A model generated the notes under the pieces. It made no database searches, had not been told where the DNA came from, and saw only the letters and a list, made by a program, of their open reading frames with translations. A stretch of DNA of 64,000 bases from Candidatus Poribacteria bacterium (GTDB taxonomy: Bacteria; Poribacteria; WGA-4E; PCPOR2b). Every line of letters starts with the position of its first letter. The stretch's first letter is position 1. The stretch covers positions 1,668,720 to 1,732,719 of the forward strand of contig OZ244587.1 of NCBI GenBank assembly GCA_965218095.1, written 5' to 3'. Position numbers and translations under genes: made by a program. Positions 7,987 through 43,202 of this stretch are shown here, in pieces.

Positions 7987-8206
7987 CTTACTATTACCCA
8001 TAAGTCTGCAAACCCTTGTGGTATAGGGATTCTGCCCGCCGATGAATCAGCGGGCTACACGGCTGCGTCCGATGAAGAAACCGATAAACGAAGTTTATTA
8101 GTTTCTCCTGAATTGAACTGAGAAGATCGCTCGAAAGCCCGATGAATCGGGCTTCTTTTTCTGTAACTCGGCGACTTCATCGCCGAGCGAAAAGATGTGG
8201 GTAATA
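7987..8206 (+). repeat. MITE-like structured repeat, copy 2 (upstream of the 1210-aa gene)
   Basis: Same orientation and architecture as copy 1. Hairpin plus T-tract at 8145-8170. A 3-nt deletion and several compensating stem substitutions relative to copy 1. Confidence 0.6.
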
Positions 8207-8254
8207 GATAGCAACTTTGAGGGGACATATAGAGGGAGACTTTTCAAAGTTAAA

Positions 8255-9451
8255 TTACTCGGGCGACCAGTGCGCCGCGTAATGGAGGATATTTTCCATC
8301 AGTTTCTCATTCGCCTTGACAGTCTCCTGCCCATCATTGCGCAAGCTGGTGAAAATGTACAAACCCCTGCTGTGTTTCCGCACGCCAACAACGAGATGTT
8401 TGCCATCGTTGGTGGTTGCAAAAACTTCGAAATCTTGATCCCAATCTGTCCAGGCATCATCAATATAGATTTCCCCCGGCTCAATCAGATGGGGCGCCGC
8501 AAACAGCTTCTCCCTCTGGTCAGTAATCTTGAAATCCTGAGTTGGTGGACGTTCGACGCCAGTCAAACTTCCTACCAGCCAGCCGATTTCACAGGGACGT
8601 TTCTGATCACTATCTTGACCGCTGACGATGACAATCCCGCCATTTGCCACAAACGTTTTGATTTTTTCCTCTATTTCTTTGTTGAGCAAGTAACCGCCAT
8701 AAGCAATCTCTCCATGACCGGGCCACAAAATGTCTGCTTCGTCTAAGTCGGAGAGCGAACGATCTTGGGTTGACTCATAAGCCAGGGGCTTATCATCTGC
8801 CCTTTTAACCTTTCGTATCGCGTTATATTCATAGCCAACTGTGTTTGTCTCCACGGGAACCTGGCTGTACATAGGCTTCGTGCTGTTACCCGTCAAGACC
8901 AGCACCTTCACCGCGTCTTTGGGAGCGGCGGGCCACTTTTCACCTGCGAGGATGGCTCGGACAATCTTCTGAAATTCCATTGTTGAACCATCAAATGTTC
9001 GCAACAAATATGGGTCCGTGTGGGGAAACGACCACCACCCGTCGGGGAAATCTTCACCCGGTCCATAGGTTTGAAACCACATGCCATCTATATATGAGAG
9101 ACTTTGAATTCCCCATTGGTTCCGTTGATAAAACACGATGATCGGCATGCCGACTTTAAGCAGTTTAACCATTTGGGGGGGAGAGCTTCCACGGCGATAC
9201 TGTCCGGTGGCGAAGTTCATTTTAATCTCATCTACATTGCTTACCCCTTTGGCGTCCTCTTCGACTGCAACAATGCTTCTCAACCGTTTAGCATTTACGC
9301 TTCTAATTTTCCCAAAGACGATGTTGGTGCAGGCATCTGAAACTTCATGGATTGTATATTCTCGCTCAATAAACCCCCTTGCTTGTGAGGAAAACAGCAA
9401 GCCAATGAAAATGAGGCATAAGGTAAGTGAAATTCGATGTTTTTTTAGCAT
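8255..9451 (-). CDS. secreted hypothetical protein (signal peptide; C-terminal region weakly resembles class-I glutamine-amidotransferase-like/ThuA folds)
   Basis: 398 aa. N-terminus MLKKHRISLTLCLIFIGLLFSSQARG. No diagnostic catalytic motif recognised. Confidence 0.5.
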   Translation of the reverse strand: MLKKHRISLTLCLIFIGLLFSSQARGFIEREYTIHEVSDACTNIVFGKIRSVNAKRLRSIVAVEEDAKGVSNVDEIKMNFATGQYRRGSSPPQMVKLLKVGMPIIVFYQRNQWGIQSLSYIDGMWFQTYGPGEDFPDGWWSFPHTDPYLLRTFDGSTMEFQKIVRAILAGEKWPAAPKDAVKVLVLTGNSTKPMYSQVPVETNTVGYEYNAIRKVKRADDKPLAYESTQDRSLSDLDEADILWPGHGEIAYGGYLLNKEIEEKIKTFVANGGIVIVSGQDSDQKRPCEIGWLVGSLTGVERPPTQDFKITDQREKLFAAPHLIEPGEIYIDDAWTDWDQDFEVFATTNDGKHLVVGVRKHSRGLYIFTSLRNDGQETVKANEKLMENILHYAAHWSPE

Positions 9452-9709: not shown

Positions 9710-10603
9710 TTATCGTCGTCGATCCATTGCTACGATTGTCTCTTCGCCCAGGTGCTCGATGAGCCACATCTTCAGCGGCACGTCGTCGTCTGTCGGCACA
9801 TACCGTCCGTCGTTCCTGACCGCGGCGCCGAGCAACTGCCTGCGAATCGGATTGCAACGGTCATACAGGTGTTCCACGACCATGTTGTCCTTAGGCCGAA
9901 TCCAGCGGTAGCCATAGCCGTAGAACAATACTTTGCGGGTGAATGCAGAACGATTTGGGCTGCGGGAGTGCCAGAGCCGACGGTCAAAAAACACCGCCGT
10001 CCCCGGCCTCGCACACATGGGGATTGCTGCATCAGGCACACTATCGGTAGTTCCCTCGCGGGGGTTGCGGCCCACCTCTGAGAAAGTGGGTATATCATCC
10101 GAAAGGTGACTGCCGGGGATAATGTAAAAGTTGCCCCGTCCGGGCTCTGAGACGTCGGTGAGAAAGTAGCCAACTTTAAGCGACAAACGGGGACGCGGAT
10201 GCGATTCCATCATCTCAATGTTGGCTCGCCCACTATCCTGGTGCCACTCCAACCAACCTTCCTCCTGTGGTGCATTGGGCTCAGCAGGGGGCTTAATGTG
10301 CATGTGTGCGTGATACAGGTAAATGTTCCACCCTAAAATACCCCAAATTTTTGGTAAGGTGGTGGGATAGTCAAGTAGGTCTAAAAAAGCGTCGTCCTCA
10401 CCGAGAAAGTTTGAAGAGCTCCACGCCTTGCCATGTTCAGTCGGCTCCGCTTCAATCGCCTTTTTGTGAAGACTATCCACGGCGGCGGTCAAACGGTCAA
10501 TCATTTCTTCGGACAAGGCATTTTCAACGATGAGGTAGCCTTGTTCCTCGAAATGGCGGTGTTGTTCGTCCGTTAAGCAATGTGAAAGATAATCTTGAGT
10601 CAT
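9710..10603 (-). CDS. phytanoyl-CoA dioxygenase (PhyH) family Fe(II)/2-oxoglutarate oxygenase
   Basis: 297 aa. WHQDSG...PGSH...WHSRSPN facial-triad pattern. The N-terminus GYLIVENAL is typical of the family. Confidence 0.7.
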   Translation of the reverse strand: MTQDYLSHCLTDEQHRHFEEQGYLIVENALSEEMIDRLTAAVDSLHKKAIEAEPTEHGKAWSSSNFLGEDDAFLDLLDYPTTLPKIWGILGWNIYLYHAHMHIKPPAEPNAPQEEGWLEWHQDSGRANIEMMESHPRPRLSLKVGYFLTDVSEPGRGNFYIIPGSHLSDDIPTFSEVGRNPREGTTDSVPDAAIPMCARPGTAVFFDRRLWHSRSPNRSAFTRKVLFYGYGYRWIRPKDNMVVEHLYDRCNPIRRQLLGAAVRNDGRYVPTDDDVPLKMWLIEHLGEETIVAMDRRR

Positions 10604-10649: not shown

Positions 10650-11408
10650 TCAACGGTGTTCCTCCGCTGCATCTTGAGGTTCAAATCCAACGACCTCACG
10701 GGCGTGTGAAACGTCGCGGTAACCCCACTTGTTATTCGACACCGCGAAGAAGATATCGAAACGCACGCTATCGGGGGCTTCAATGCACTTTTCAACCATC
10801 TGTGCAATGTCGCGCTGGCTGCACCAGATTGAAAAATGGCGTGGCTGCGAGGGATGGTTGTCACGAGTGACGCCGCCAATGCGCAGGCAGATCATCGAGA
10901 TGTCATAAGTATCTGAAAAGTGCATTGCCAATGCCTCGCCGAAGACCTTGGTACACCCATAGAGCCCGCTCGGTCGCGTCGGCGATTTGTGGTTCAGTTT
11001 ATCCCACGTTTCGGGGACTTCATTGTAACGCCCTTCGGTGAGCGCGTTGTAAGGAAACTCTCGCTCCCAATTGCTGACAGTTGATCCGCTGCTGGCGTAG
11101 ATAACCCGCTTAACCCCTGCCCGCCGTGACGCCTCGAAGACGTTGTAAGTCCCAACGATATTAGGATTCAGCAGATCTTCCCACGTTGCGTTTCCTCGGG
11201 CCATTGCCGCTAGATGTACCACCACATCTACCCCCTCGAATGTGGATTGGATGGCATCTAGGTCGGCAATATCCGCCTGATGGCACTCGACCCCTGGCAC
11301 AGGATGGCGGTTGAGCGCGCGCAAGGTATACTTGCTTTCTAATTGCTCCCGCACGACGCCCCCAATTAATCCGCTCATGCCGGTGATGAGGACCTTCTTT
11401 TGTGTCAT
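10650..11408 (-). CDS. NAD-dependent epimerase/dehydratase (extended SDR)
   Basis: MTQKKVLITGMSGLIGG Rossmann motif. A GGAGGGA RBS precedes the ATG at 11408. The track ORF start at 11462 is an upstream extension. Confidence 0.7.
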   Translation of the reverse strand: MTQKKVLITGMSGLIGGVVREQLESKYTLRALNRHPVPGVECHQADIADLDAIQSTFEGVDVVVHLAAMARGNATWEDLLNPNIVGTYNVFEASRRAGVKRVIYASSGSTVSNWEREFPYNALTEGRYNEVPETWDKLNHKSPTRPSGLYGCTKVFGEALAMHFSDTYDISMICLRIGGVTRDNHPSQPRHFSIWCSQRDIAQMVEKCIEAPDSVRFDIFFAVSNNKWGYRDVSHAREVVGFEPQDAAEEHR

Positions 11409-11718
11409 AGCTTCCCTCCATTTCTCGTCATTCGTTTCGGACTGGAGTGAACAGCGTCTCATTCCAGTCCACGTTCACCCTTCCCAGCTTGCTTTATTAT
11501 ACACCATGTGTAGCCAAGTTATCAAACCTTCAAGCCTGTGGATTAAAGAAATTGTCTTGACAAGGTTTCTATTTTCCTCTATACTGAGCACCACGTCTAA
11601 CATGCTGTGCTTCCATAAGCAAGCGCAGATGGGGCGCAGTTCGACTTTAATTATTCGTTGACGTAAGGAGATTCGCTTCGATTACATCAACGAGAAAAAA
11701 ACAAGGGAGGCATCCACA

Positions 11719-12363: not shown

Positions 12364-12549
12364 TTTTCATGTCCTACTGAATCTACATATACATGCTGAC
12401 ATTCATTCATAAAGAGCGCATTGGGTGATGCAGGAGCTCAAAGGTTCAGGGGTTCTGAACTCTGTTGTGCATCCAAAATTCCACATCCAAATCGGCACAA
12501 ATGAAACTGTGATAGACAATACGTGCATTACAAAGGAGACTCGCATATA

Positions 12550-13329
12550 ATGAACGAGGACGAAAAATATGTGTTCGACCTGACAGGCTATCTTATTATC
12601 AAAGATGCACTCACACCTGAAGAGGTCGCACGCTGTAACGCGGCAATTGACCAACTCAAAGAGATGGACAGGTCATTGTCAGGCGGATCGAAGGCGTTAG
12701 CGGGCACATCCCACCGGAGGGATATGGGCGGGATGTTAGCGTGGGAACGTCCGTGGTGTGAGTCGTTTCGAGAGTTGTTAGTGCACCCACGAATTAAACC
12801 CTACCTCGACGGCATCTTGGAAGAGGGCTATCGGCTAGATCATGGCCCAGGCTTGATTGCGATGGAGGACGGAACAGAAGGCGGCACATTGCACGGTGGC
12901 GGCGTCGAGCGTCCCAATTTCTCCGAAGCCTACTTCTTCAAGAACGGACGCATCTACACCGGACTCACGGTGGTAGAGTACATGCTGGCGGACGAAGGTC
13001 CCGGCGATGGCGGGCTAGTGGTCATTCCGGGGAGCCACAAGGCAAACCTGCCCTGCCCACGCAGCATGAGGTGGTATGAGAAGCATCAGGAGCATGTGGT
13101 TGAAGTCCATGCAAAAGCAGGGGACGCAGTCATTTTCACCGAGACCTTGACGCACGGAACGCTGCCGTGGAAGGGTAAGCATCAGCGTCGTGTGCTGCTT
13201 TATAAGTTCAGTCCGGGATTTCAGGCTTACAGCGGGGGCGCGCATCAGATTGCGTATCCTGATTATATTGAGGAGATGACGCCGGAGCAGCGTGCGGTGA
13301 TGGAGGCGCCACATATTCGTCGTCGATAG
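12550..13329 (+). CDS. phytanoyl-CoA dioxygenase (PhyH) family protein
   Basis: MNEDEKYVFDLTGYLIIKDALTPEEV N-terminus and VIPGSH motif. An AAGGAG RBS precedes the ATG at 12550. Confidence 0.7.
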   Translation: MNEDEKYVFDLTGYLIIKDALTPEEVARCNAAIDQLKEMDRSLSGGSKALAGTSHRRDMGGMLAWERPWCESFRELLVHPRIKPYLDGILEEGYRLDHGPGLIAMEDGTEGGTLHGGGVERPNFSEAYFFKNGRIYTGLTVVEYMLADEGPGDGGLVVIPGSHKANLPCPRSMRWYEKHQEHVVEVHAKAGDAVIFTETLTHGTLPWKGKHQRRVLLYKFSPGFQAYSGGAHQIAYPDYIEEMTPEQRAVMEAPHIRRR

Positions 13330-13415
13330 TGTTCAGGAATGGAGGGGATGAATAGAAGGTACGGTTAGAACATGGCTTGACAAAATGAACAAATCTTCCA
13401 AATCCGCTGCTCTAA

Positions 13416-13820
13416 TCAGGTTTCATGTATCGTGTCTGTTGAATATAACACAACCCCTTCGCGTTCAGCGGTTTGCCAAAGCGCGTCCGTATAACCGGAT
13501 CGAGCAAAGAACGTATAATTGATGTGCTGAACTTCCGATTGAGCCATGAGCACCTGCGCCTTGGATTTCAGCGAATCCAGAATATTTGTTCCGACAGAGC
13601 GATTTGTCCATTTGCACTCACCGACTAAAGCGTGTATACCATTACCACTCAAAGCGACCAGATTGATCTCCACATTACGCGTCCACCACGCGCCAAAGTT
13701 TACCGCCTTGAAAGGGAGTTTACCATTTCGATTTAACCGCTTCAGAAACTGCAAACAGACCGACTCAAACACAGGTGCGACAAAGTTGGCGAAATGCGGC
13801 CTAATCCGATCCGCCAACAC
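13416..13820 (-). pseudogene. C-terminal DUF234-like fragment of an archaeal-type ATPase (N-terminus missing)
   Basis: 134-aa ORF matching only the DUF234 C-terminal region. No AAA+ module upstream. Confidence 0.35.
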
Positions 13821-13908
13821 AAATTCAACATCTTCTTCCTCAAGGTAGCCCCGTCGGTTTTGGGCTAATGAACGGCGTCACACCGAAGGAAATTAAAGGG
13901 AATCCTCT

Positions 13909-14288
13909 ATGACTACCAAACAAAGAAAAGAAGAATACACACTTCAGGAAATAATCAACCTTTGGGGCAATTCCTCTCTTTTTCAAACAGGCTCTAAAGC
14001 TCGCGACGACAGTCGGTTGGATTCCTGCCGACACGGCTATGCCTGTGATGATGAAAACGTCACAATTTTTATCATTATCAGAACACAATGGGAGAGGTTG
14101 GCTCAAGGCCGACGATCGGAAGTATGGTAATTGCGGATATTTTGCGTCATGACATCAAAACTGTGTATATCACGGGTTTTCCAAATTACGTGTCAGAAAA
14201 GCAACCTGAAGGTGTGAGCCTGCACGAGCATGAGACGAGGAAAGACTTCGATTTCCTACGACATTTGGCGGGGCGGTGTGGTGGATAA
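13909..14288 (+). pseudogene. frameshifted paralogue of the small ORF at 14276-14533
   Basis: Two overlapping ORFs (13909-14130 and 14088-14288). Together they reproduce the motif HYxNTMxxVGxxPxxGxxxIxDILxHDIKxxYITGFP of the downstream paralogue. Confidence 0.3.
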
Positions 14289-14533
14289 AAAGTTTTGTCG
14301 AGGCATTTCAAAATTCGGGCGGTAAGTTTCTTTGTACCGAACAACTCAGCAATGCGGATGCCCTTGGATCACTTATCATTAAGAAGCTTCACCCCGTGCG
14401 ATATACGACGGTCGATCATTATCACAACACGATGACAGCAGTCGGCACGGGTCCTGTGGCAGGAACTCTTGCCATTACCGATATTTTGAAACACGACATC
14501 AAATCTGCATATATCACAGGTTTTCCTTCATGA
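14276..14533 (+). CDS. small hypothetical protein (85 aa) of a locally duplicated family
   Basis: Shares HYHNTMTAVGTGPVAGTLAITDILKHDIKSAYITGFPS with the upstream frameshifted copy. No known domain recognised. Confidence 0.3.
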   Translation: MWWIKSFVEAFQNSGGKFLCTEQLSNADALGSLIIKKLHPVRYTTVDHYHNTMTAVGTGPVAGTLAITDILKHDIKSAYITGFPS

Positions 14534-14709
14534 TCGATTACCTGACACACCCTGAGTTTGTCAGGTACAACCCGGGGTTGCCACTGTCAGCACAAGGACG
14601 TCATTTGTGTAGATGTTAAAGAAATTGTGTGTTAAACTTACTCCTATTTATGGTGATTTGTTTAATTCTGTTAAAGCGAAGGAACACTCATGATTACAAG
14701 GGGAAATCG

Positions 14710-16660
14710 ATGAATTTCCGACAGAAAATCACACTACATCTTTTGCTCTATATCGCTCTGTGCAGCGCTGCATTCGCGCAAGTCGTCGACATCCCCGCCC
14801 CCAACCTCCAAGTTGCAATCCGTCAAGAACTCCAACTACTCCCCGGCAGTAGGATTACAAAAGAAGACATGCTGTGGCTAGAAAGGCTAAACGCAGCCCG
14901 CCACGATATAATTGACCTTATGGGCTTAGAACACGCAACTAATCTGGCAAGTTTGTCCTTATGGGGAAATCAACTCGCCGAACTAACACCGATAGCCAAC
15001 CTCCGAAGATTGACATACCTTGATACGGCTGCCTGCTCCATTTCAGATATAAGCGTGGTATCAAACCTCGTTAGTTTAACCACTCTAAACGTTAGGTTTA
15101 ACCAGATTGTCGATATTAGCCCGCTCGCCAACCTGACAGACCTAGTTTCGCTGTGTTACGCCACTAGCAAATCTCACACAACTCACCGAATTGTACCTGA
15201 GCGATAATCGCATTGCAGATATTAGCCCGCCTGCAAGTTTAACAAAATTGGATTCGCTAGACATTCGACGTAACCCCGTTACTGACTACACCCCGCTTGA
15301 TGGACTCGCTTTAACCCATTTTTTATACGACGAATTTTGCGAACACCTGCCGCTTCCCGTACGCGACAGGATTCATAATAGAAACTACCCGTCCATATTC
15401 GCGAGATGGAGTGGATTAGGTTGGGTTCCTATTAGCAATCGTCCCGAACTATCAGATATGGAAAATGTAGCACGTCATGATTTATGGTTCAGCGTCAACA
15501 TGTTTGGATTAACCTTCTTCGAAACGCCTGACGGATTTAAGATGTCGGGCGAGATTGACAAGGCGATACGCCGGCGAGATGAATTTCTTGCCCTCAATCC
15601 CAATATGGTTTTTCTTGTTACGATTGCTATGAGAACGTACTCACTCAATGCTTTTCCGGAAGACTGGCCATATTGGATAAGGGACGCACAGGGGAACATC
15701 CAGCGCGAAGGATTAGTTGATTTTACGCACCCGGACATCCAGGATAGAATTGTTCAACAGGCTATAACGGTATCAAGGTGTGGCTTATATGACGGTATTA
15801 TCTTCGATTGGTGGAACGAGCATGGTGCCGTTCTTGCCGATTTTGATGGGAATTGGGAAGATAAATATCGCGGAAATGAAGCCGAACAACGCGCTCGAGA
15901 CAACATCGTACGCGGCATCCGGGCTGCAACTCGACCCGACTTTTTGATAATGGGCAACACCAATCGAACCAAAATCCCACGTACAGGGCCTTACATCAAC
16001 GGCGGCTTTATGGAAACCGTCGTACCTCATGATAGAATTGGCGCAGTCCTCGAACAACACCTGAACGAGGTTGAAGACTCGCTGCTTTGGCTAGATCAAA
16101 ATCTACGAGAACCACAAATAAACGGACTGGAAGGTTTGAGTGTTCTCACTGAGCCACCAGATAGCTAAACCAATCTTCGGTGGATGCGAGCTATCACAAC
16201 CTTGAGCCTCACGTATTCCGATGGCTATGTTCTTTTCACCGAAAGCATAAAATACACCCACTATTGGTACGACTTTTGGGACGCCGACCTCGGTCGCCCT
16301 GTCGGTCCAAAAGCCCAATTGTACGACAACTGCCCCGGTCTCTATATTCGCGAATTCACGAACGGGTGGGCGGTGTACAACCACAGCGGCAAGCCGCAGA
16401 TAATAACCTTGCCAGAAAAAGTGCAAGCTGTAGCAAGCGGTTTGGTGAACACCGAGCACGCCCTCCCTAACCTCGACGGCGAGATGTACTTTCGCATTAA
16501 GCCGAAGAATCGCGCGGATGTCAATGGCGATGGAGTGGTGAATATCCTAGACTTGACGCTGGTTGCCCAAGGCTTCGGCACAGATAAATCTGGTGTGGAC
16601 GTGAATGGGGATGGGGTCGTCAATGTGTTTGACCTTGTGTTCATAGCGAACCAATTTTGA
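14710..16660 (+). pseudogene. secreted LRR / TIM-barrel-like / dockerin protein disrupted by one frameshift (about 15143-15160) and one in-frame TAA (16166-16168)
   Basis: Signal peptide MNFRQKITLHLLLYIALCSAAFAQ with an AAGGGGA RBS. LRR units continue across the frame change (PLANLTDL / PLANLTQLTELYLSDNRIADISP). The ORF at 16184 is in frame with the previous one across a TAA. The C-terminal double dockerin is DVNGDGVVNILDL...DVNGDGVVNVFDL. Confidence 0.7.
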
Positions 16661-16734
16661 TAAAGACAGTGATTGGTGGAGAGTTAAAAGCGGAATCTTT
16701 TGTTTTTGCTCGCTTGTGGATTTATGACCAAACA

Positions 16735-16877
16735 CCTGTCGCCCCGCTGGGGCTTATGTTTGTTGAGGGAGGGAACGACGATAAGAGAGGAAATCGGGGA
16801 TTTGACGATCCCCGATCCTACGAAGAAAGAATTGTTGTCGCCGGCTATACACGTGTCGCCCCGCTGGGGCTTTTTAA
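16735..16877 (+). terminator. two tandem hairpins of motif ACACNTGTCGCCCCGCTGGGGCTT, the second followed by TTTTT
   Basis: GCCCCGCTGGGGC stem-loops at about 16740 and 16857. A similar copy lies after the 1346-aa gene at about 42984. Confidence 0.45.
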
Positions 16878-16886
16878 GGAGTTTTG

Positions 16887-17466
16887 ATGATAGATTATCT
16901 GACACATCCGAAGTTTTTGAATTGTGATCCATCTATCCTGCCGTCTAGCCAAGGTGGTGGCGGCGGGATGGGGGTGAAAACACATCGCGTCCTCGAGGCA
17001 TTGTCGGACGTTTATCCGCGAACGCGGAGGATATGCGATTTGAGTGAGATTACGGCGGATACGGTACTGATAGAGCCGCTGCGTTTCACCCTGCCAACGG
17101 AAGGCTATGGCGACAGAGAATATGAAAGTGTTGAAAGATTGATTCATGGACTACGGAATCACAAGGGGCGTAAAATTCTGTATTGTAGCGAATTGACACT
17201 GATGCGTATGCCCCCATTCCTGCACGGGCAAGTGCTGGGCTTGTGTAACCTAATCACAACGAATTGTAAATTCCAGGCGAATATGTTCAAGTACGTGAAC
17301 GTGTATACCAATCGATGTAGATATTCAGCGCCGTATTTTTCTTGCGCCGATTGAGGGAAAACTGGCGGAAGAGATTCGGGCAATTGCGAAGAAACAAGAA
17401 CTGGTTTTGGAAACGCCCGTCAATCTCTGGCTGCAAGAAAAGCTGATGGAAGCACATCAGAATTGA
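16887..17466 (+). pseudogene. hypothetical protein with conserved N-terminus MIDYLTHPKF; reading frame switches near 17300-17345
   Basis: AAGGAG RBS. The N-terminal 37 nt are conserved, with third-position changes only, relative to a 29-codon remnant at 14530. The C-terminal segment ...IAKKQELVLETPVNLWLQEKLMEAHQN lies in a different frame. Confidence 0.3.
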
Positions 17467-17486
17467 TGAGAATCAGGAGAACAACA

Positions 17487-18536
17487 ATGGTCAGAATCGG
17501 AATTATCGGCATCGGTTTTATGGGGATGATTCACTACTACGGAACGAAGAAAATCTCTGGCGGCGAAGTTGTCGCTATCTGCACGCGCGATCAGAAAAAG
17601 CTGGCTGGCGATTGGACGAACATTCAAGGGAATTTCGGTCCGCGCGGTGGTATCGAAGATCTCTCCCACCTCCGGAAGTACAATCGGATCGAAGATCTTC
17701 TCGCGGATAACGACATCGACATGGTGGACATCTGCTTGCCGACGCATCTGCATAAAGAGGCTAGCATCGCCGCGCTCAAAGCCGGAAAGCACGTCCTTGT
17801 CGAAAAACCGATTGAGATTCGGCCCGACGGTGCAAACGAGATAGTACAGGTCGGTGCGGAAAGCGGCCGCCAGTTTATGGTGGCACATGTACTGCCGTTT
17901 TTCGCGGAATTCGCTTATGCGAAACAGGCGGTCGAAGGTGGGGAATACGGGAATCTGCTCGGTGGGCATTTCAAGCGAGTTATCTCTCAGCCGACATGGC
18001 CTCAAGATTTCACCGACCTGGAAAAAAGCGGCGGGCCGGGGATCGATCTGCACATCCATGACACCCATTTCATCCGATTGCTTTGTGGCGTCCCTGATGC
18101 CGTATTTTCCCAAGGGAAACTCGCTAGCGGTGATTTTGTAGAGTACCTCACGACGCAGTATATCTACAAGGACAAAAATCTCTCAATCAGTTGCTCATCG
18201 GGAGCGGTGTCTCAACAGGGGCGAGCGTTTTCGCACGGCTTCGAGCTCTATCTAGAGAAAGCAACGCTGCTGTATGAGTTCGCAACGCTTGGCGGTGAAC
18301 CGGTCACCTCAACCCCGTTGGCTCTGTTGACTGACAATGGAGAGGTTCACAAAGTTGAGCTCGGTGAGGTAGACTCCATTGACGCCTTTACCGGCGAGAT
18401 CCAGTATGCCGTTGATGCCATCAATCAGGGGAGCGAACCAACTGCACTCTCAGGAACGGGTGCAAGGGATGCGCTTCTGCTTTGCTATAAAGAGGCTGAG
18501 TCGGTCAAAACAGGCGAAATCGTGTCGATCTCTTGA
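17487..18536 (+). CDS. Gfo/Idh/MocA-family NAD(P)-dependent oxidoreductase
   Basis: MVRIGIIGIGFMG Rossmann N-terminus with an AGGAGA RBS. Confidence 0.8.
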   Translation: MVRIGIIGIGFMGMIHYYGTKKISGGEVVAICTRDQKKLAGDWTNIQGNFGPRGGIEDLSHLRKYNRIEDLLADNDIDMVDICLPTHLHKEASIAALKAGKHVLVEKPIEIRPDGANEIVQVGAESGRQFMVAHVLPFFAEFAYAKQAVEGGEYGNLLGGHFKRVISQPTWPQDFTDLEKSGGPGIDLHIHDTHFIRLLCGVPDAVFSQGKLASGDFVEYLTTQYIYKDKNLSISCSSGAVSQQGRAFSHGFELYLEKATLLYEFATLGGEPVTSTPLALLTDNGEVHKVELGEVDSIDAFTGEIQYAVDAINQGSEPTALSGTGARDALLLCYKEAESVKTGEIVSIS

Positions 18537-19557: not shown

Positions 19558-19994
19558 TCAAGGGAGCCATATAAGAGTGGAGACAAAGCTGAGAAATCCA
19601 AAATAACGGATAGCTAACTTCTCGAACCGAGAGAAGATGCGGCGATACCATTTTATCTTGTTAATGAAACATTCAACCCGATGTCTCTCTTTGTACAGAT
19701 GTTTGTCGTAATCTCTTTGATCCACACGATGACTTTTGGGCGGTATCACCGCAATCGCTCCATTCGCCTCAATAACCGCGATAAAATTGTCAGAGTCATA
19801 TCCCTTGTCTCCAATCACATACTCGCTTTTATATCCAAGTATCAACGCTTCTGCTTCTGCTATGTCGTTTCTTTGACCGGGCGTCAGATGTATTCTTAGT
19901 GGATTACCCAGGCCGTCAACGATGATGTGAATTTTTGTACTGAATCCCCCGCGAGAGCGACCTAACGCTTGGTTTTCAGTGCCACCCTTTTTTT
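19558..19994 (-). CDS. IS427-group transposase OrfB (DDE domain), reached by -1 frameshift from OrfA
   Basis: ...STKIHIIVDGLGNPLRIHLTPGQRNDI...VIGDKGYDSDNFIAVIEANGAIAVIPPKSHR... Confidence 0.75.
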
Positions 19995-20348
19995 TAAGGC
20001 ACCCGCCACACACGGGTGCGCTCGAATGATTGTACTGTCCACAATAAGCGACTCGATATCGGGGTCGGCGGCGAAGTGGGGGTGCATCTGTGTGAAGATA
20101 CCTTTGTCGCACCATCGAGCAAACCGCTTGTAGCGGGTGTTCCATTTGCCATAGGTGTCTGGTAGAAGTCTCCATTGAGCCCCGCTACGAGTCACCCACA
20201 GGACGGCTTCGACGAAGCGGCGTGTAGCAGCTTCGTCGCCAACATAGATGGTGAGACAGCTAAGAAGAAACCGGTATATCTTATTCCATTGTTCATCAGG
20301 TAAGGTTATTGGCGTCATTCTTCTATTATGCCACAACCTTATACTCAA
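19962..20348 (-). CDS. IS427-group transposase OrfA
   Basis: 128 aa, MSIRLWHNRRMTPITLPDEQWNKIYRFLL... It ends in the poly-A frameshift window. Confidence 0.8.
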   Translation of the reverse strand: MSIRLWHNRRMTPITLPDEQWNKIYRFLLSCLTIYVGDEAATRRFVEAVLWVTRSGAQWRLLPDTYGKWNTRYKRFARWCDKGIFTQMHPHFAADPDIESLIVDSTIIRAHPCVAGALKKRVALKTKR

Positions 20349-38921: not shown

Positions 38922-41900
38922 TTGAATAAGCGGATTACCTCAATACCTATTGTGCTAGCACTCTATACAATCCTAATATGTATTCCATCTTCGGTATATG
39001 CCAAAAAGGGGGTAAGACAGCAGATTCAACTGAAAGCAGGCGCGGCGTTGCAGCGGATCAAATCCGATTCAGAAACCCCTGTCCGTGCACGATGGCATCA
39101 GAACCGGGGGACAGTCCGCAACCTTTACAATTTGACACTGCCTGCCCCGATAGGAACGCTGGAAACATCAGTGCGTCAATGCCTTACCGACTATTGTGAC
39201 CTTTTTGCGATGACTGATCCAAACATCGAGTTGCGTCTCACGGATATCCAAAACAGCTTAACGGGCAGACATGTTCGATTCCATCAATACTACAACGGTA
39301 TCGAAGTTTACGGTGCAGTGACCTCGGTCCACACCAACCGCTCTGGGCAGATACGAGTCATCCACAACAACTACTTCCCACAGATCAACATCAGTACAGC
39401 GGCATCGCTCTCCCCGGAACAAGCAATCAGTATCGCCATTGCCGAGTCCGGTGCATTCGATTTGCGCAAGCCGCCGCGTGTCAACTTGGTAATTTTCCCG
39501 GATCGTAATACGGGACAGATAGGCGACTATGCTAATGCGTATCGCCTCGCTCACCGCACAATCGTGCACTCCCGTCAACCACTCGCAAGTTGGGAGTATA
39601 TCATTGACACCAACACCGGCGAGCTGTTGCACCGACGGAACCTGCTCAGGTTTGCTGACGGACAAGGGCGCGTCTTTAACCCGAATCCTGTTGTCGCCCT
39701 TAAAGATTTCACGCTCATGGACCAAGATGATTCTCCTGACGCGATACCAGAAGCAGCGTATACGGATGTGATGCTACCTGAGTTGGACGGGAGTGGTTTT
39801 CTTGATGGGCCTTACGCGAGTACGAGATTGACCGAAAATCGTGCCAACGAGCCGACGCTGGGGTTCAACTATCTCCGAGATGATCCCCGATTTGAGGAGG
39901 TGATGGTCTATTATCACGTTGATGCCGTTGGGCGTTATTTGAAAGGACTCGGCTTCGATTTCGTGGACAATTGGCAGATTCCTGCGAATGTGCATTTCGG
40001 TATGACGAGGGCTGGTTTCTATAACGATAGTGAGGGATCGATTAATTTCGGAGATGCCGGTGTTGATGTTGCCGAAGATGCTGAAGTGATTATCCATGAA
40101 TATGGTCACGCGATCCTTGATCGACAGGTCCCTAACATTAACAAGGGCGAAGGTGGCGCGATACACGAAGGGTTTAGTGATTTTCTCGCAGCCAGTTTTT
40201 TCAGTGCCGTGAGCGATGGTTTTAGTGACTCGATCGTTTTTGAATGGGCTGGTTCAGGTGACCCTGAGATTTACACTCGTCCCGTAACTGGTAACAAGCG
40301 TTATCCCGAAGACATTGTGGGTGAGCCACACACCGATGGAGAGATTTGGTCTGCGGCACTATGGGAGATTTTTGAGGCGATTGGACGCGATGCGTCGATC
40401 CGCTTGATTGTCGAGAGCCATTTCTTCCTCTCACCCGACACGGAACTTGTCGATGGGGCATCAGCGATTTTTATGGCGGATCAGGAACTGAATGGTGGAG
40501 TAAATTTCGACCTAATTTTGGGAATTATGGAGAACCGTGGATTCTTTACGCTGCCCAAATTGGCATCGGATGCCTTTGAGGAGAACGATACAGCGGAGAC
40601 CGCAGCCGCGATTGAGCTCCCGTTTGTCAACGGAGAACTGTCCGTCCACACAGCGGACAATGATGATTACTATAGATTCCGTTTGGATGAGACAATGCAG
40701 GTTGGGTTGGGAATTGATTTTCAACCCATTTACGGGGAGTTGATGCTAACATTGATGGGACCTAATGGTATCGAGCTTGTTACCTTCGAGACGAAGGATG
40801 TTACATCGCTTGAATTAGTGCCGGGCGATTATGTCGTTGCAGTTTCGGGCATCAACGGTGCGACTAACGATTATAAACTAGCGCTTATCGTTGACAACCA
40901 CGGCGATACGCCTGACACAGCGACATCTGTGGCGATCGGCGACACGATAGAAAGTTTCATCGACTTCAACGGAGATACGGATTTCTTCGCGATTGAAGGT
41001 GAGAAGGGGCAGCGCATTGAAATCACTATTACGACAAAGAACTCCGACCTCGACTCTCTGCTCGTTGTCTATGGACCAGATGGTGAGCTCTTTGCTAAAA
41101 GTGATGATGTCTTGCCGACCATCGGTCCGGAGCCGATTCCCGAACTAAATCCGCGTGGGATTGATTCCCGCGTGAGTGAAAAACTACCAGCCAATGGAAC
41201 GTACCTGCTCGCTGTCAGCAACATTGCACTTCCCAATCTGAATGCCCCCTTTGGCGGTCTAAACTACTCTTACACACTGACGATCAGTGGGAAGACCGAT
41301 GACCATGCAGCGTGCGGTAGTGGCGAGGAAACGCCATTGACCTTCGATGCACCTATAACAGGTATCATTACCCTTAGCACCCTTAGCGGTGATCCTACAT
41401 CACCGGATCCTCAAGACTCGGAACCCGATCTTCATGACTCGGACGGTTTCCGCTTTGAAGCGTCAGAGGGCACTGTCATTGCCCTACACGTTGAGGTAGA
41501 AACGCCTGCACGCGAGGTAATATTTATGGTGACCCTCCTCAGTCTTTTGGATGCATCTGGAGAAACGTTGGTATCTACTCGTGGCGCTCCTAATGGCTTA
41601 GAGGTGCGGATTGATGGATTTCTCATCCCTGCCGATGGCGAGTATTGTGTTGATGTTGCCGGTTTCATAGGAGGTGCGGTTGGTTCCACTTATACCTATA
41701 CGCTGACGTTATCTGAGGGCGAACTGCCCGAAGATGATCACGAAGATCTGAAAGGGAATCCAACCCCCTTAACGGTGGGTGTTCCTGTCGAGGGAGCGAT
41801 CAGTTTTGTCGGGGATGCCGATGCGTTTCAGTTTACTGCTACAGCGGGACAAATCATTACGTTAGCGGTGGACGGGCAACCCGCCACTCCGTTCTCTCGT

Positions 41901-42962
41901 TTAGTTTTGACCCTGTATAATAGCGATTTACAGCGTTTAGCCGAGGTTCCGCTCTTTATAGAAGGTATTGATTCGATGCTAGAAGGATTTGAAATTCCTG
42001 TGGACGGAATTCACTATGCCGAGATTAGAGATATGTTCGGAGGAAGTGAAGCGAATTTTTCCTACACACTGACCCTGACAATCGAAGAGGGAGATGTTGA
42101 GCGTAAATTTCCCCCTTATGATGTCAACCAAGATGGCAAGGTGGACATTTTTGATCTCGTGCTTGTCGGTCAACATTTCGGCGAAAAATTCATTAACGCC
42201 ACGCCAACTGCAGATTTTGGACAGTTCCGTTCGGTATCGCCCGAAGGGGAGTTGCGGCTCCTGATGACCCCGAGTGTGACGGATACACGACAATTGACCG
42301 TCTCAATCCACACCACAGCGATTGCCGATCTTTACGGCTACCATTTTTCAATCCAGTACGATCCGGCGATATTAGAGTTCCTTACTGCATCACCAAGCCC
42401 GGTTTTAGCCGCTGCGCTGCCCCAAAGTTACTGGCATATCTCCCAGCAAGGGACACAACTGAAGTTCACACAGACACGTCAAGCAACGCTGAAAGGTGTG
42501 ACAGCAGAGGGTTCACTGGCTATGCTTGTTTTTCATGTCAAAAAGACGGTGCCCCCGTCGTCGCAGCCCCCCATCCGGCTCGTTGACCTGCAACTGGCGG
42601 ATTCGCTGACAAGAGCGATTCCGGTGCACGTGGTCGGTGAGCGAGTGTCAATGACAGAGCTATTCCCTGAGAAACCGATGTTGCTGCAAAACCACCCGAA
42701 CCCGTTTAACCCGGAAACATGGATTCCGTATCAACTCTCTACCGATTCAGAGGTGGTTATCTCAATTTACGATACAAACGGTGAGCGTGTCCGTCAATTT
42801 GACCTCGGCTATCAGCACGTTGGGACATACATTACTCGCGGTAGGGCGGCCTACTGGGATGGAGAAGACATGTATGGTGAGCAGGTTGCGAGCGGCTTAT
42901 ATTTTTATCAGATCCGGGCGGGTGCGTTTTCTGCGACCCGCAAAATGGTTATCGTCAAATAG
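38922..42962 (+). CDS. secreted mosaic metalloprotease: FTP/PepSY-like propeptide, M36/M4-type gluzincin domain, 4 PPC (pre-peptidase C-terminal) domains, dockerin-like module, T9SS C-terminal sorting domain
   Basis: 1346 aa. TTG start with a GGAGA RBS. HEYGHAILD plus EGFSDF at about 40097-40200. Four DxDxY/FxF PPC units (ADNDDYYRF, GDTDFFAI, HDSDGFRF, GDADAFQF). YDVNQDGKVDIFDLVLVGQHFG at about 42115. C-terminus LLQNHPNPFNPETWIPYQL...YFYQIRAGAFSATRKMVIVK. Confidence 0.85.
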   Translation: MNKRITSIPIVLALYTILICIPSSVYAKKGVRQQIQLKAGAALQRIKSDSETPVRARWHQNRGTVRNLYNLTLPAPIGTLETSVRQCLTDYCDLFAMTDPNIELRLTDIQNSLTGRHVRFHQYYNGIEVYGAVTSVHTNRSGQIRVIHNNYFPQINISTAASLSPEQAISIAIAESGAFDLRKPPRVNLVIFPDRNTGQIGDYANAYRLAHRTIVHSRQPLASWEYIIDTNTGELLHRRNLLRFADGQGRVFNPNPVVALKDFTLMDQDDSPDAIPEAAYTDVMLPELDGSGFLDGPYASTRLTENRANEPTLGFNYLRDDPRFEEVMVYYHVDAVGRYLKGLGFDFVDNWQIPANVHFGMTRAGFYNDSEGSINFGDAGVDVAEDAEVIIHEYGHAILDRQVPNINKGEGGAIHEGFSDFLAASFFSAVSDGFSDSIVFEWAGSGDPEIYTRPVTGNKRYPEDIVGEPHTDGEIWSAALWEIFEAIGRDASIRLIVESHFFLSPDTELVDGASAIFMADQELNGGVNFDLILGIMENRGFFTLPKLASDAFEENDTAETAAAIELPFVNGELSVHTADNDDYYRFRLDETMQVGLGIDFQPIYGELMLTLMGPNGIELVTFETKDVTSLELVPGDYVVAVSGINGATNDYKLALIVDNHGDTPDTATSVAIGDTIESFIDFNGDTDFFAIEGEKGQRIEITITTKNSDLDSLLVVYGPDGELFAKSDDVLPTIGPEPIPELNPRGIDSRVSEKLPANGTYLLAVSNIALPNLNAPFGGLNYSYTLTISGKTDDHAACGSGEETPLTFDAPITGIITLSTLSGDPTSPDPQDSEPDLHDSDGFRFEASEGTVIALHVEVETPAREVIFMVTLLSLLDASGETLVSTRGAPNGLEVRIDGFLIPADGEYCVDVAGFIGGAVGSTYTYTLTLSEGELPEDDHEDLKGNPTPLTVGVPVEGAISFVGDADAFQFTATAGQIITLAVDGQPATPFSRLVLTLYNSDLQRLAEVPLFIEGIDSMLEGFEIPVDGIHYAEIRDMFGGSEANFSYTLTLTIEEGDVERKFPPYDVNQDGKVDIFDLVLVGQHFGEKFINATPTADFGQFRSVSPEGELRLLMTPSVTDTRQLTVSIHTTAIADLYGYHFSIQYDPAILEFLTASPSPVLAAALPQSYWHISQQGTQLKFTQTRQATLKGVTAEGSLAMLVFHVKKTVPPSSQPPIRLVDLQLADSLTRAIPVHVVGERVSMTELFPEKPMLLQNHPNPFNPETWIPYQLSTDSEVVISIYDTNGERVRQFDLGYQHVGTYITRGRAAYWDGEDMYGEQVASGLYFYQIRAGAFSATRKMVIVK

Positions 42963-43202
42963 TTAACTCAGGTTGCCACCTATCGCCCCGCTAGGGCTTT
43001 AGGTGACAACTTGAGTGTTTTTACTATAAATCACTTTACTCGCAGCTACTTCAGGATAACCATAAGAGAGTGACCCCGAAACCTTTTGAGTTGAAAAAGG
43101 ATGAAAACCGCGCCTTGCTAATCTTATTATAAAAAAGTGCTCCCGATCTTTGCAAGAAAAAAGCAAAGGAAAACTAAACGCCCCTAAATTGCGACAAAAA
43201 AT

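Follow-up and report, generated by a model that had tools for sequence, protein, structure and literature searches.

Clustered gene fragments in 4 kb of a Candidatus Poribacteria chromosome, very probably the remnant of a surface-glycan and surface-protein gene module

Candidatus Poribacteria are symbionts of sponges. Here we analyze an island of gene fragments of about 4 kb (13416-17466) in the chromosome of one of these bacteria, giving all positions on the full 64-kb stretch of DNA in which the island lies (hereafter the window) and denoting comparison loci as L001-L019 and homologous proteins as P00nn. The island is very probably a non-functional remnant of a Poribacteria-specific gene module concerned with a surface glycan and surface proteins, consisting of pieces of GT29-like sialyltransferase genes (A1 and A2), 5' pieces of two GT4 glycosyltransferase genes (B1 and B2), a disrupted gene for a protein with leucine-rich repeats (LRR), a GHL15 domain and a dockerin domain, and the tail of a CopG-type antitoxin gene. 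A preliminary description had seen here a duplicated, decaying module of small genes, such as a toxin-antitoxin system or a mobile cassette. The remnants are indeed paralogous and the lesions real, but the genes were not small: the pieces derive from a GT29-like protein of about 250 amino acids (aa) and a GT4 protein of 338 aa. The open reading frames (ORFs) were thus assigned to unrelated enzyme families (GT29-like and GT4), an outcome which that description had itself named as speaking against a module. Its statement that no family was recognized holds for the fragments taken alone, whereas their full-length relatives can be assigned.

The first pair of fragments is marked by a direct repeat of 112 nucleotides (nt; 14071-14182 and 14415-14526, 71% identity), which encodes YHYQNTMGEVGSRPTIGSMVIADILRHDIKTVYITGFPN in the first copy and DHYHNTMTAVGTGPVAGTLAITDILKHDIKSAYITGFPS in the second, with the shared motif NTMxxVGxxPxxGxxxIxDILxHDIKxxYITGFP. 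A1 (14022-14288, + strand) corresponds to approximately residues 145-235 of a protein of about 250 aa; its motif-bearing frame contains three in-frame TGA codons just upstream of the motif, at about 14049-14057, and a 73-codon ATG ORF in a different frame (13909-14130) precedes it. A2 (14243-14533, + strand) corresponds to approximately residues 97-190 and is called as an 85-aa ORF (14276-14533). The repeat, the frame change and the three TGA codons bear out the earlier observation of two tandem small ORFs with a common motif, one of them disrupted. In blastx comparisons with the A family, A1 aligned with P0045 (56% identity over 71 aa, E = 9e-21) and P0046 (48% over 86 aa), and A2 with P0044 (54% over 82 aa, E = 4e-25); A2 was also 51% identical to the A protein of L014 over 81 aa (E = 7e-26). 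A2 has neither the N-terminal VAIVGR...IDxxDVVVR motif nor the final ~50 residues, and the motif-L region is missing from both A1 and A2, so that the catalytic domain, with its motifs L, S, III and VS, is incomplete in each. Lacking the motif-L half, both would therefore be inactive as enzymes. The two copies differ at 11, 9 and 17 sites in codon positions 1, 2 and 3, respectively, an excess at the third position. Most simply, A1 and A2 would be what is left of two neighboring A genes that were paralogues, the alternative being a local duplication of a single fragment; we favor the former because several tandem A genes precede B in L007.

Pfam searches with A1 and A2 alone gave no match, and a word-indexed homology search with the 85-aa ORF recovered only the ORF itself. 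The relatives of A were instead reached by tblastn against loci fetched via the B gene, which revealed A-like sequence immediately 5' of B in L007, L008 and L014, and full-length relatives of 235-304 aa elsewhere in B-containing loci. A profile search then gathered 60 A-family members of 230-283 aa. More than half of the members compared with the Pfam family Glyco_transf_29 (PF00777) matched it at E <= 0.01 (30 of 56, best E = 5e-10), and three further proteins of the loci matched the same profile at E values of 0.001-0.006 over profile positions 54-87. Against the PDB, the only meaningful match of the A-family profile was pig ST3Gal-I, at sialylmotif L (E = 0.004), and phmmer searches of the PDB with single full-length A and B proteins returned noise only. 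An AlphaFold2 model of P0026 (pLDDT 89.4, pTM 0.88) conforms to the expectation for the GT-A variant 2 sialyltransferase fold in a Foldseek search of the PDB: the top 19 matches (best E = 4.9e-6, TM about 0.5) were without exception sialyltransferases of GT29 or GT42, the best of them animal enzymes, and included ST8SiaIII, ST3Gal-I, ST6Gal1, ST6GalNAc2 and the GT42 enzyme CstII. Judged by profile matches and the predicted fold, the parent family of A is one of putative GT29-like sialyltransferases. In our reading, the PxxGxxxIxDILxxxxxxxYITGF segment, which both window copies retain, resembles sialylmotif S. GT29-like enzymes without the transmembrane segment and disulfide cysteines of their eukaryotic counterparts have been reported in bacteria (Petit et al. 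2018, PMC5811610). In Poribacteria the A family is expanded and mostly unannotated, with 60 clusters (P0026-P0085) and often several copies per locus; further examples lie at L014:7068-7820, L012:1809-2660, L007:846-1760 and L008:583-1290. Searching the literature in full text, we found no paper that connects Poribacteria with sialyltransferases, and to our knowledge no enzyme of this Poribacteria clade has been characterized.

The second pair of fragments is recognized by the peptide MIDYLTHP(E/K)F, encoded at 14530 and again at 16887. Both copies had been noted in the preliminary description, as had the overlap of the first with the preceding stop codon, but the similarity extends over 23 codons (MIDYLTHPEFVRYNPGLPLSAQG versus MIDYLTHPKFLNCDPSILPSSQG) and not just over 10. 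It begins exactly at the ATG. Differences over the 23 codons are distributed as 6, 6 and 15 among the three codon positions, and within the first 30 nt they comprise four synonymous third-position changes and the first-position change that exchanges E for K. The B1 stub (14530-14598, + strand) represents the first 23 codons of a GT4 gene and aligns by tblastn with L007 B1 over 22 aa at 68% identity. When the stub junctions are aligned as DNA, its homology ends inside a (GGN)5 tract encoding QGGGGG, beyond which the ORF continues through unrelated sequence to 14619; at the other end, its ATG overlaps the TGA of the 85-aa ORF (ATGA, 14530-14533). The B2 fragment (16887-17313, + strand), preceded by an AAGGAG ribosome-binding site, retains the N-terminal 142 of 338 codons and is 77% identical to residues 1-143 of L007 B2; its DNA homology stops at 17302-17314 in all of the 10 orthologues compared. 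The stub is closer to L007 B1 (68%) than to L007 B2 (59%), while the copy at 16887 is closer to L007 B2.

The 155-aa ORF that starts at 16887 gave no Pfam match by itself. It has 24 database homologues, and all relatives of the MIDYLTHP gene that were retrieved from GTDB species genomes belong to Candidatus Poribacteria. Intact 338-aa versions are found in six Poribacteria genomes and at L007:9624-10640, and are 87-92% identical to each other. L007 B2 scores 28.2 bits against the Pfam family Glycos_transf_1 (PF00534; cutoff 26.4), with the domain at residues 161-312, and L014 B scores 26.3, just under the cutoff; full-length B also gives weak NCBIfam matches to the GT4 enzymes BshA, MshA and VpsD. 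From these alignments, the segment MIDYLTHPKF...QGGGGGM is taken to be the conserved N-terminus of a lineage-specific, predicted GT4 glycosyltransferase of 338 aa. The Glycos_transf_1 domain at residues 161-312 is absent from both window copies, the homology of which ends at codons 23 and 142.

Between the two B fragments lies an LRR-GHL15-dockerin pseudogene (14710-16660, + strand; Pfam LRR_4, GHL15 and Dockerin_1), the product of which would have had a signal-peptide-like N-terminus. A tblastn search with its intact 650-aa orthologue from L006 recovered it in two frames, with 55% identity over 507 aa. As had been noticed earlier, this gene is decaying: one frameshift, caused by an out-of-frame deletion of about 25 nt inside an LRR unit near 15154, is accompanied by an in-frame TAA at 16166-16168, where L006 has proline.

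At its 3' end the B2 fragment abuts the last piece of the island, a 3' fragment of an antitoxin-like gene of the CopG type (PF12441), about 51 codons long (17314-17466, + strand), which covers the ribbon-helix-helix half and is out of frame with B2. What had been described as a single frameshifted ORF of 190 aa accordingly proved to be two unrelated fragments, GT4 and CopG-type, joined at about 17313/17314. The tail itself has no Pfam match; an exhaustive HMMER search, however, found 16 homologues, most of them 50-113 aa long (E values down to 1e-19), and the tail aligns with the C-terminal ~50 residues of most of these. Four of the 16 pass the Pfam CopG_antitoxin cutoff (PF12441). No ATG, GTG or TTG occurs in frame upstream of the domain, and no toxin gene adjoins it, the next gene being a Gfo/Idh/MocA oxidoreductase. 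By its homology the tail is best described as a putative dead 3' remnant of a CopG-type antitoxin gene. We also considered it as a diverged C-terminus of the GT4 protein, and rejected this: the alignment score was 32 against a shuffle mean of 27 (standard deviation 4.4), and the family is CopG_antitoxin. As a separate observation, P0086, P0087 and P0089 (200, 262 and 1123 aa) contain three, four and eight stretches, respectively, that match the tail domain; such apparent tandem repeats of a CopG_antitoxin-type domain would be an odd architecture for an antitoxin.

Comparison with related loci indicates the arrangement from which these fragments came: intact modules in other Poribacteria have one or more A genes (~250 aa), followed by a GT4 gene (B1, 338 aa), the gene of a secreted LRR-GHL15-dockerin protein and a second GT4 gene (B2). 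In L007 the gene order is A, A, B1, LRR-GHL15-dockerin, B2, which is also the order of A1, A2, the B1 stub, the LRR pseudogene and B2 in the window. In L006 the intact 650-aa LRR-dockerin gene lies 20 nt upstream of B, and in L014 an A gene lies directly upstream of B. The module adjoins genes for CTP_transf_3 (CMP-sugar synthetase type), epimerase and methyltransferase proteins in L007 and L008, and L012 and L014 have an additional Methyltransf_24 gene. This gene context suggests that the intact module makes a glycan with a CMP-activated nonulosonic or Kdo-type sugar, alongside secreted LRR-GHL15-dockerin proteins. The L006 pair of LRR-dockerin and GT4 genes is found (L006:1-12651) amid SIR2_2, a faint DUF4020, KilA-N/BstA_C and a phage integrase, together with a DUF4435 protein with a weak AAA_21 ATPase match, and this neighborhood looks like a mobile or defense island.

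The island is present in four further assemblies (L001-L004), namely two ENA long-read metagenome contigs of 5.3 and 6.3 Mb (coverage 13x and 43x) and two Logan assemblies. The window is collinear with all four, with 2-22 substitutions and no indels over the overlap compared (6468 nt per ENA assembly and about 1600 nt per Logan assembly). Since the five assemblies agree without an indel, the lesions (frameshifts, stops and truncations) are genuine features of the organism, common to several near-clonal strains. For this reason we regard it as extremely unlikely that the genes are intact in the organism and that the lesions are long-read errors. In favor of an artifact, the contigs are long-read metagenome assemblies, and low-coverage relatives (2-4x; L007, L008 and L010) show frameshifts that may be errors; against it stands not only the agreement among assemblies that include two Logan read sets and the 13x and 43x contigs, but also the nature of the defects, which are mostly missing segments of hundreds of bases (the N-terminus of A, 315 codons of B1, 196 codons of B2) or a deletion of about 25 nt, and not homopolymer slips.

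We infer that the decay of the module may have proceeded as follows. Two A genes would have been reduced to the partial, overlapping pieces A1 and A2, with loss of the last ~50 codons of A, as a result of which the new stop of A2 sits on the ATG of B1. B1 would have been cut to 23 codons by a deletion starting in the (GGN)5 tract, the LRR gene hit by the out-of-frame deletion within its repeat and by a nonsense codon, and B2 truncated beyond codon 142 and fused to what remained of a dead CopG-type antitoxin gene. The motifs common to different parts of the island would then be explained by A1/A2 and B1/B2 being old paralogues that diverged while still coding.

Several points weigh against this account. 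Many single A members, including P0026, fall below the PF00777 gathering score (23 bits). Some of the comparison contigs (L007, L008 and L010) have coverage of only 2-4x and frameshifts of their own that may be errors, and the intact module rests mainly on L012-L017 and L006. No orthologous locus between PhyH and Gfo genes was found in another species, and the island could have been inserted and then decayed, or decayed in place. Furthermore, the 85-aa ORF, or the ATGA-coupled pair of A2 and the stub, may keep a residual function, and the recurrence of B 5' stubs in two other genomes (L018 and L019) could exceed what random decay would leave.

A residual function is the core of a rival explanation, in which A2, coupled to the 29-codon MIDYLTHP peptide and with a second copy from 16887, would form a working module of small genes, resembling a toxin-antitoxin system or representing a new pair of small proteins. 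The stop/start overlap at 14530-14533, the AAGGAG ribosome-binding site before 16887, the CopG-type fragment at 17314-17466 and the identity of the 85-aa and 155-aa ORFs across several assemblies could all be cited for it. However, these two ORFs are sub-fragments of far longer enzymes without the parts that those enzymes need, and the 85-aa form has no homologue outside the strain cluster. Their identity among assemblies reflects near-clonal strains (2-22 single-nucleotide polymorphisms, SNPs, in 6.5 kb) and not conservation. Pfam, PADLOC and NCBIfam gave no toxin, antitoxin or defense match for A1, A2, the stub or the 155-aa ORF. There are no two adjacent intact small genes, and the only toxin-antitoxin-related piece is the CopG_antitoxin fragment, which has neither a start codon nor a toxin neighbor. 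We consequently find the functional-module explanation highly unlikely, and the toxin-antitoxin suggestion of the preliminary description was not upheld. Its other suggestion, a mobile cassette, fares no better: the repeated 5' segment is GT4 coding sequence from the ATG onward, no integrase was found between positions 9 and 22 kb of the window, and the hairpins do not lie at both ends of a cassette. The sole mobile gene in that part of the window is an insertion sequence (IS) transposase of the IS5 family.

The recurrence of the stubs could be read differently, with the 5' end of the GT4 gene, and above all its (GGN)5 tract, serving as a point of repeated recombination by which LRR-GHL15-dockerin genes are duplicated, swapped or deleted; the stubs would then be footprints of active surface-protein diversification and not of passive decay. 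Three genomes (that of the window, L018 and L019) have LRR-dockerin genes with B 5' stubs beside them, and the stubs of the window and L018 both end within the (GGN)5 tract. L019 has a tandem array of LRR, stub, LRR, stub, LRR, with about 60 nt of common sequence upstream of the stubs, and LRR-dockerin genes are multi-copy in L008, L010 and L019. On the other hand, the end points vary, with codon 17 for the L019 stub and codons 62, 71 and 142 for other fragments. No gene for a recombinase or integrase adjoins the stub loci, the window LRR gene is itself dead, and the sample is three genomes only. L019 is also explained by ordinary tandem duplication through unequal crossing-over, and looks like a recent case of it because its stubs share upstream sequence. 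Given that the other fragments end elsewhere, we hold a recombination hotspot to be improbable, and retain decay of the glycosylation and surface-protein module as the preferred explanation. The stubs outside the window lie at L018:8001-8066 and 9044-9232 and at L019:5824-5874 and 8001-8207.

The intergenic region upstream of the B2 fragment contains two palindromic units of 24 nt, at 16732-16755 (ACACCTGTCGCCCCGCTGGGGCTT, + strand, with a 5-bp GC stem) and at 16849-16872 (ACACGTGTCGCCCCGCTGGGGCTT, + strand, followed by TTTTT and the ribosome-binding site of B2), which are 96% identical over 24 nt. Their core, GTCGCCCCGCTGGGGCTT, occurs exactly at 16738 and 16855 and with two mismatches at 42982, the chance expectation being 0.05 per window. 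The three hairpin copies reported earlier, two between the MIDYLTHP copies and a third after a 1346-aa gene, are thus real, but the conserved unit measures 24 nt rather than 23. Folded singly, units 1 and 2 do no better than shuffled sequences (z = 0.3 and 0.7), while the whole intergenic region around them is more structured than shuffles (z = -3.9), partly owing to an unrelated 11-bp hairpin that a terminator-like scan detected between them (16791-16818). The third copy (42966-43016, + strand) is contained in an extended hairpin of 22 bp, 20 nt past the stop of the 1346-aa ORF and hence in a terminator-like position (-32.1 kcal/mol, z = -6.65). That ORF (38922-42962) encodes an M36 (fungalysin-type) metallopeptidase with PPC, Cohesin and FlgD_ig/T9SS-tail domains, so that a cohesin-bearing protein and a dockerin-bearing pseudogene occur in the same window.

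Outside the window, the unit with its 5' flank (GCTATACACCTGTCGCCCCGCCGGGGCTT) is also present in L016, from another Poribacteria species, in three to four copies in both orientations within less than 300 nt. This cluster (11280-11575) is about 2.3 kb downstream of an intact GT4 gene and is placed differently relative to B. None of the other 14 Poribacteria loci examined has the 24-nt palindrome. In a metagenome scan the bare 18-mer core was found in more than 120 unrelated contigs, and is neither lineage-specific nor diagnostic; by our estimate, chance alone could roughly account for that many hits of a GC-rich 18-mer, given the size of the collection. From their sequence and placement, the units look like short dispersed intergenic palindromes of the repetitive extragenic palindromic (REP) type and would lie outside the gene module.

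The left edge of the island is a C-terminal fragment of 134 aa of a DUF234-containing ATPase-type gene (13416-13820, - strand; Pfam PF03008, E = 3e-21). Because positions 21-93 of the profile align to residues 3-75, the ORF starts inside the domain and its N-terminal part is missing. This remnant stretches the pseudogene island leftward beyond the features of the preliminary description. Intact genes flank the island, namely a PhyH dioxygenase (12523-13329, + strand) and the Gfo/Idh/MocA oxidoreductase (17463-18536), and its G+C fraction is 0.45-0.47 across 13400-15800 versus 0.51-0.57 in flanking genes. The intact neighborhood contains two genes of the PhyH (phytanoyl-CoA dioxygenase) family less than 3 kb apart (9710-10603, - strand, and the gene at 12523-13329), with ThuA and an epimerase-like gene between them, besides the Gfo/Idh/MocA gene. 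An IS5-family transposase (19558-20348, - strand), in two overlapping frames with DUF4096 and DDE_Tnp_1, is located about 2 kb from the island. The SNPs between the window and the other assemblies are mostly concentrated in this transposase (19581-20292), a clustering that would fit assembly merging reads of several IS copies. Rfam matched no family in 13300-17600, and promoter and terminator scans of the region gave background levels only.

Public gene calls list ORFs of 66, 85, 72 and 155 aa in this region as proteins; the region is best annotated as pseudogene fragments and not as hypothetical small proteins. It also serves as a caution that what is left of tandem paralogues can look like a module of repeated small ORFs. 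While the window region itself is ordinary pseudogene debris, the intact GT29-like family is more interesting than the debris: the analysis yields, as a by-product, an unannotated family in Poribacteria (60 sequences) linked to GT4 and LRR-GHL15-dockerin genes, which could be relevant to host mimicry by sponge symbionts and to the bacterial origins of the sialyltransferases of eukaryotes. A bolder proposal, which we consider rather unlikely, is that the module is a Poribacteria system that decorates surface or secreted proteins with a sialic-acid-like sugar, and that its evolution proceeds through rapid amplification in tandem, through recombination at the (GGN)5 tract of the GT4 gene and through decay, thereby giving strain-level variation in host-facing structures, with the window debris as a frozen snapshot.

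The components of the island can each be set beside a known system. With regard to CAZy family GT29 (PF00777), the A family has a sialylmotif-L-like VAIVGR...G..ID..DVVVR segment aligning to PF00777 and to pig ST3Gal-I, whereas the window copies are fragments only and lack motif L; candidate donor sugars of the A family would be Neu5Ac, legionaminic or pseudaminic acid, or Kdo. Full-length B resembles the retaining GT4 glycosyltransferases such as BshA, MshA and VpsD in its C-terminal Glycos_transf_1 domain and its weak model matches, but differs in being short (338 aa), in its distinctive N-terminus and in scoring only just at the Pfam cutoff, and the 23 and 142 codons kept in the window exclude the catalytic C-terminal domain. 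Likewise, the tail aligns with the C-terminal ribbon-helix-helix half of the CopG/BrnA-type antitoxins (PF12441), but has neither their N-terminal EFWDTHD...YWD part, nor a start codon, nor a BrnT-like toxin neighbor.

Like REP palindromes and bacterial interspersed mosaic elements (BIME), the window units are short, GC-rich, imperfect, intergenic and multi-copy, their flanks are conserved beyond the stem, and in L016 they are clustered and found in both orientations; they depart from these elements in having a stem of just 5 bp and in folding, as single units, no better than shuffled sequence. Finally, the island as a whole shares with the pseudogene islands of host-associated bacteria its adjacent truncated, frameshifted and nonsense-bearing genes, the fixation of its lesions in close strains and the presence of an IS5-family transposase 2 kb away. 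What distinguishes it from them is that its fragments come from paralogous tandem genes, and so mimic a module of repeated small ORFs.

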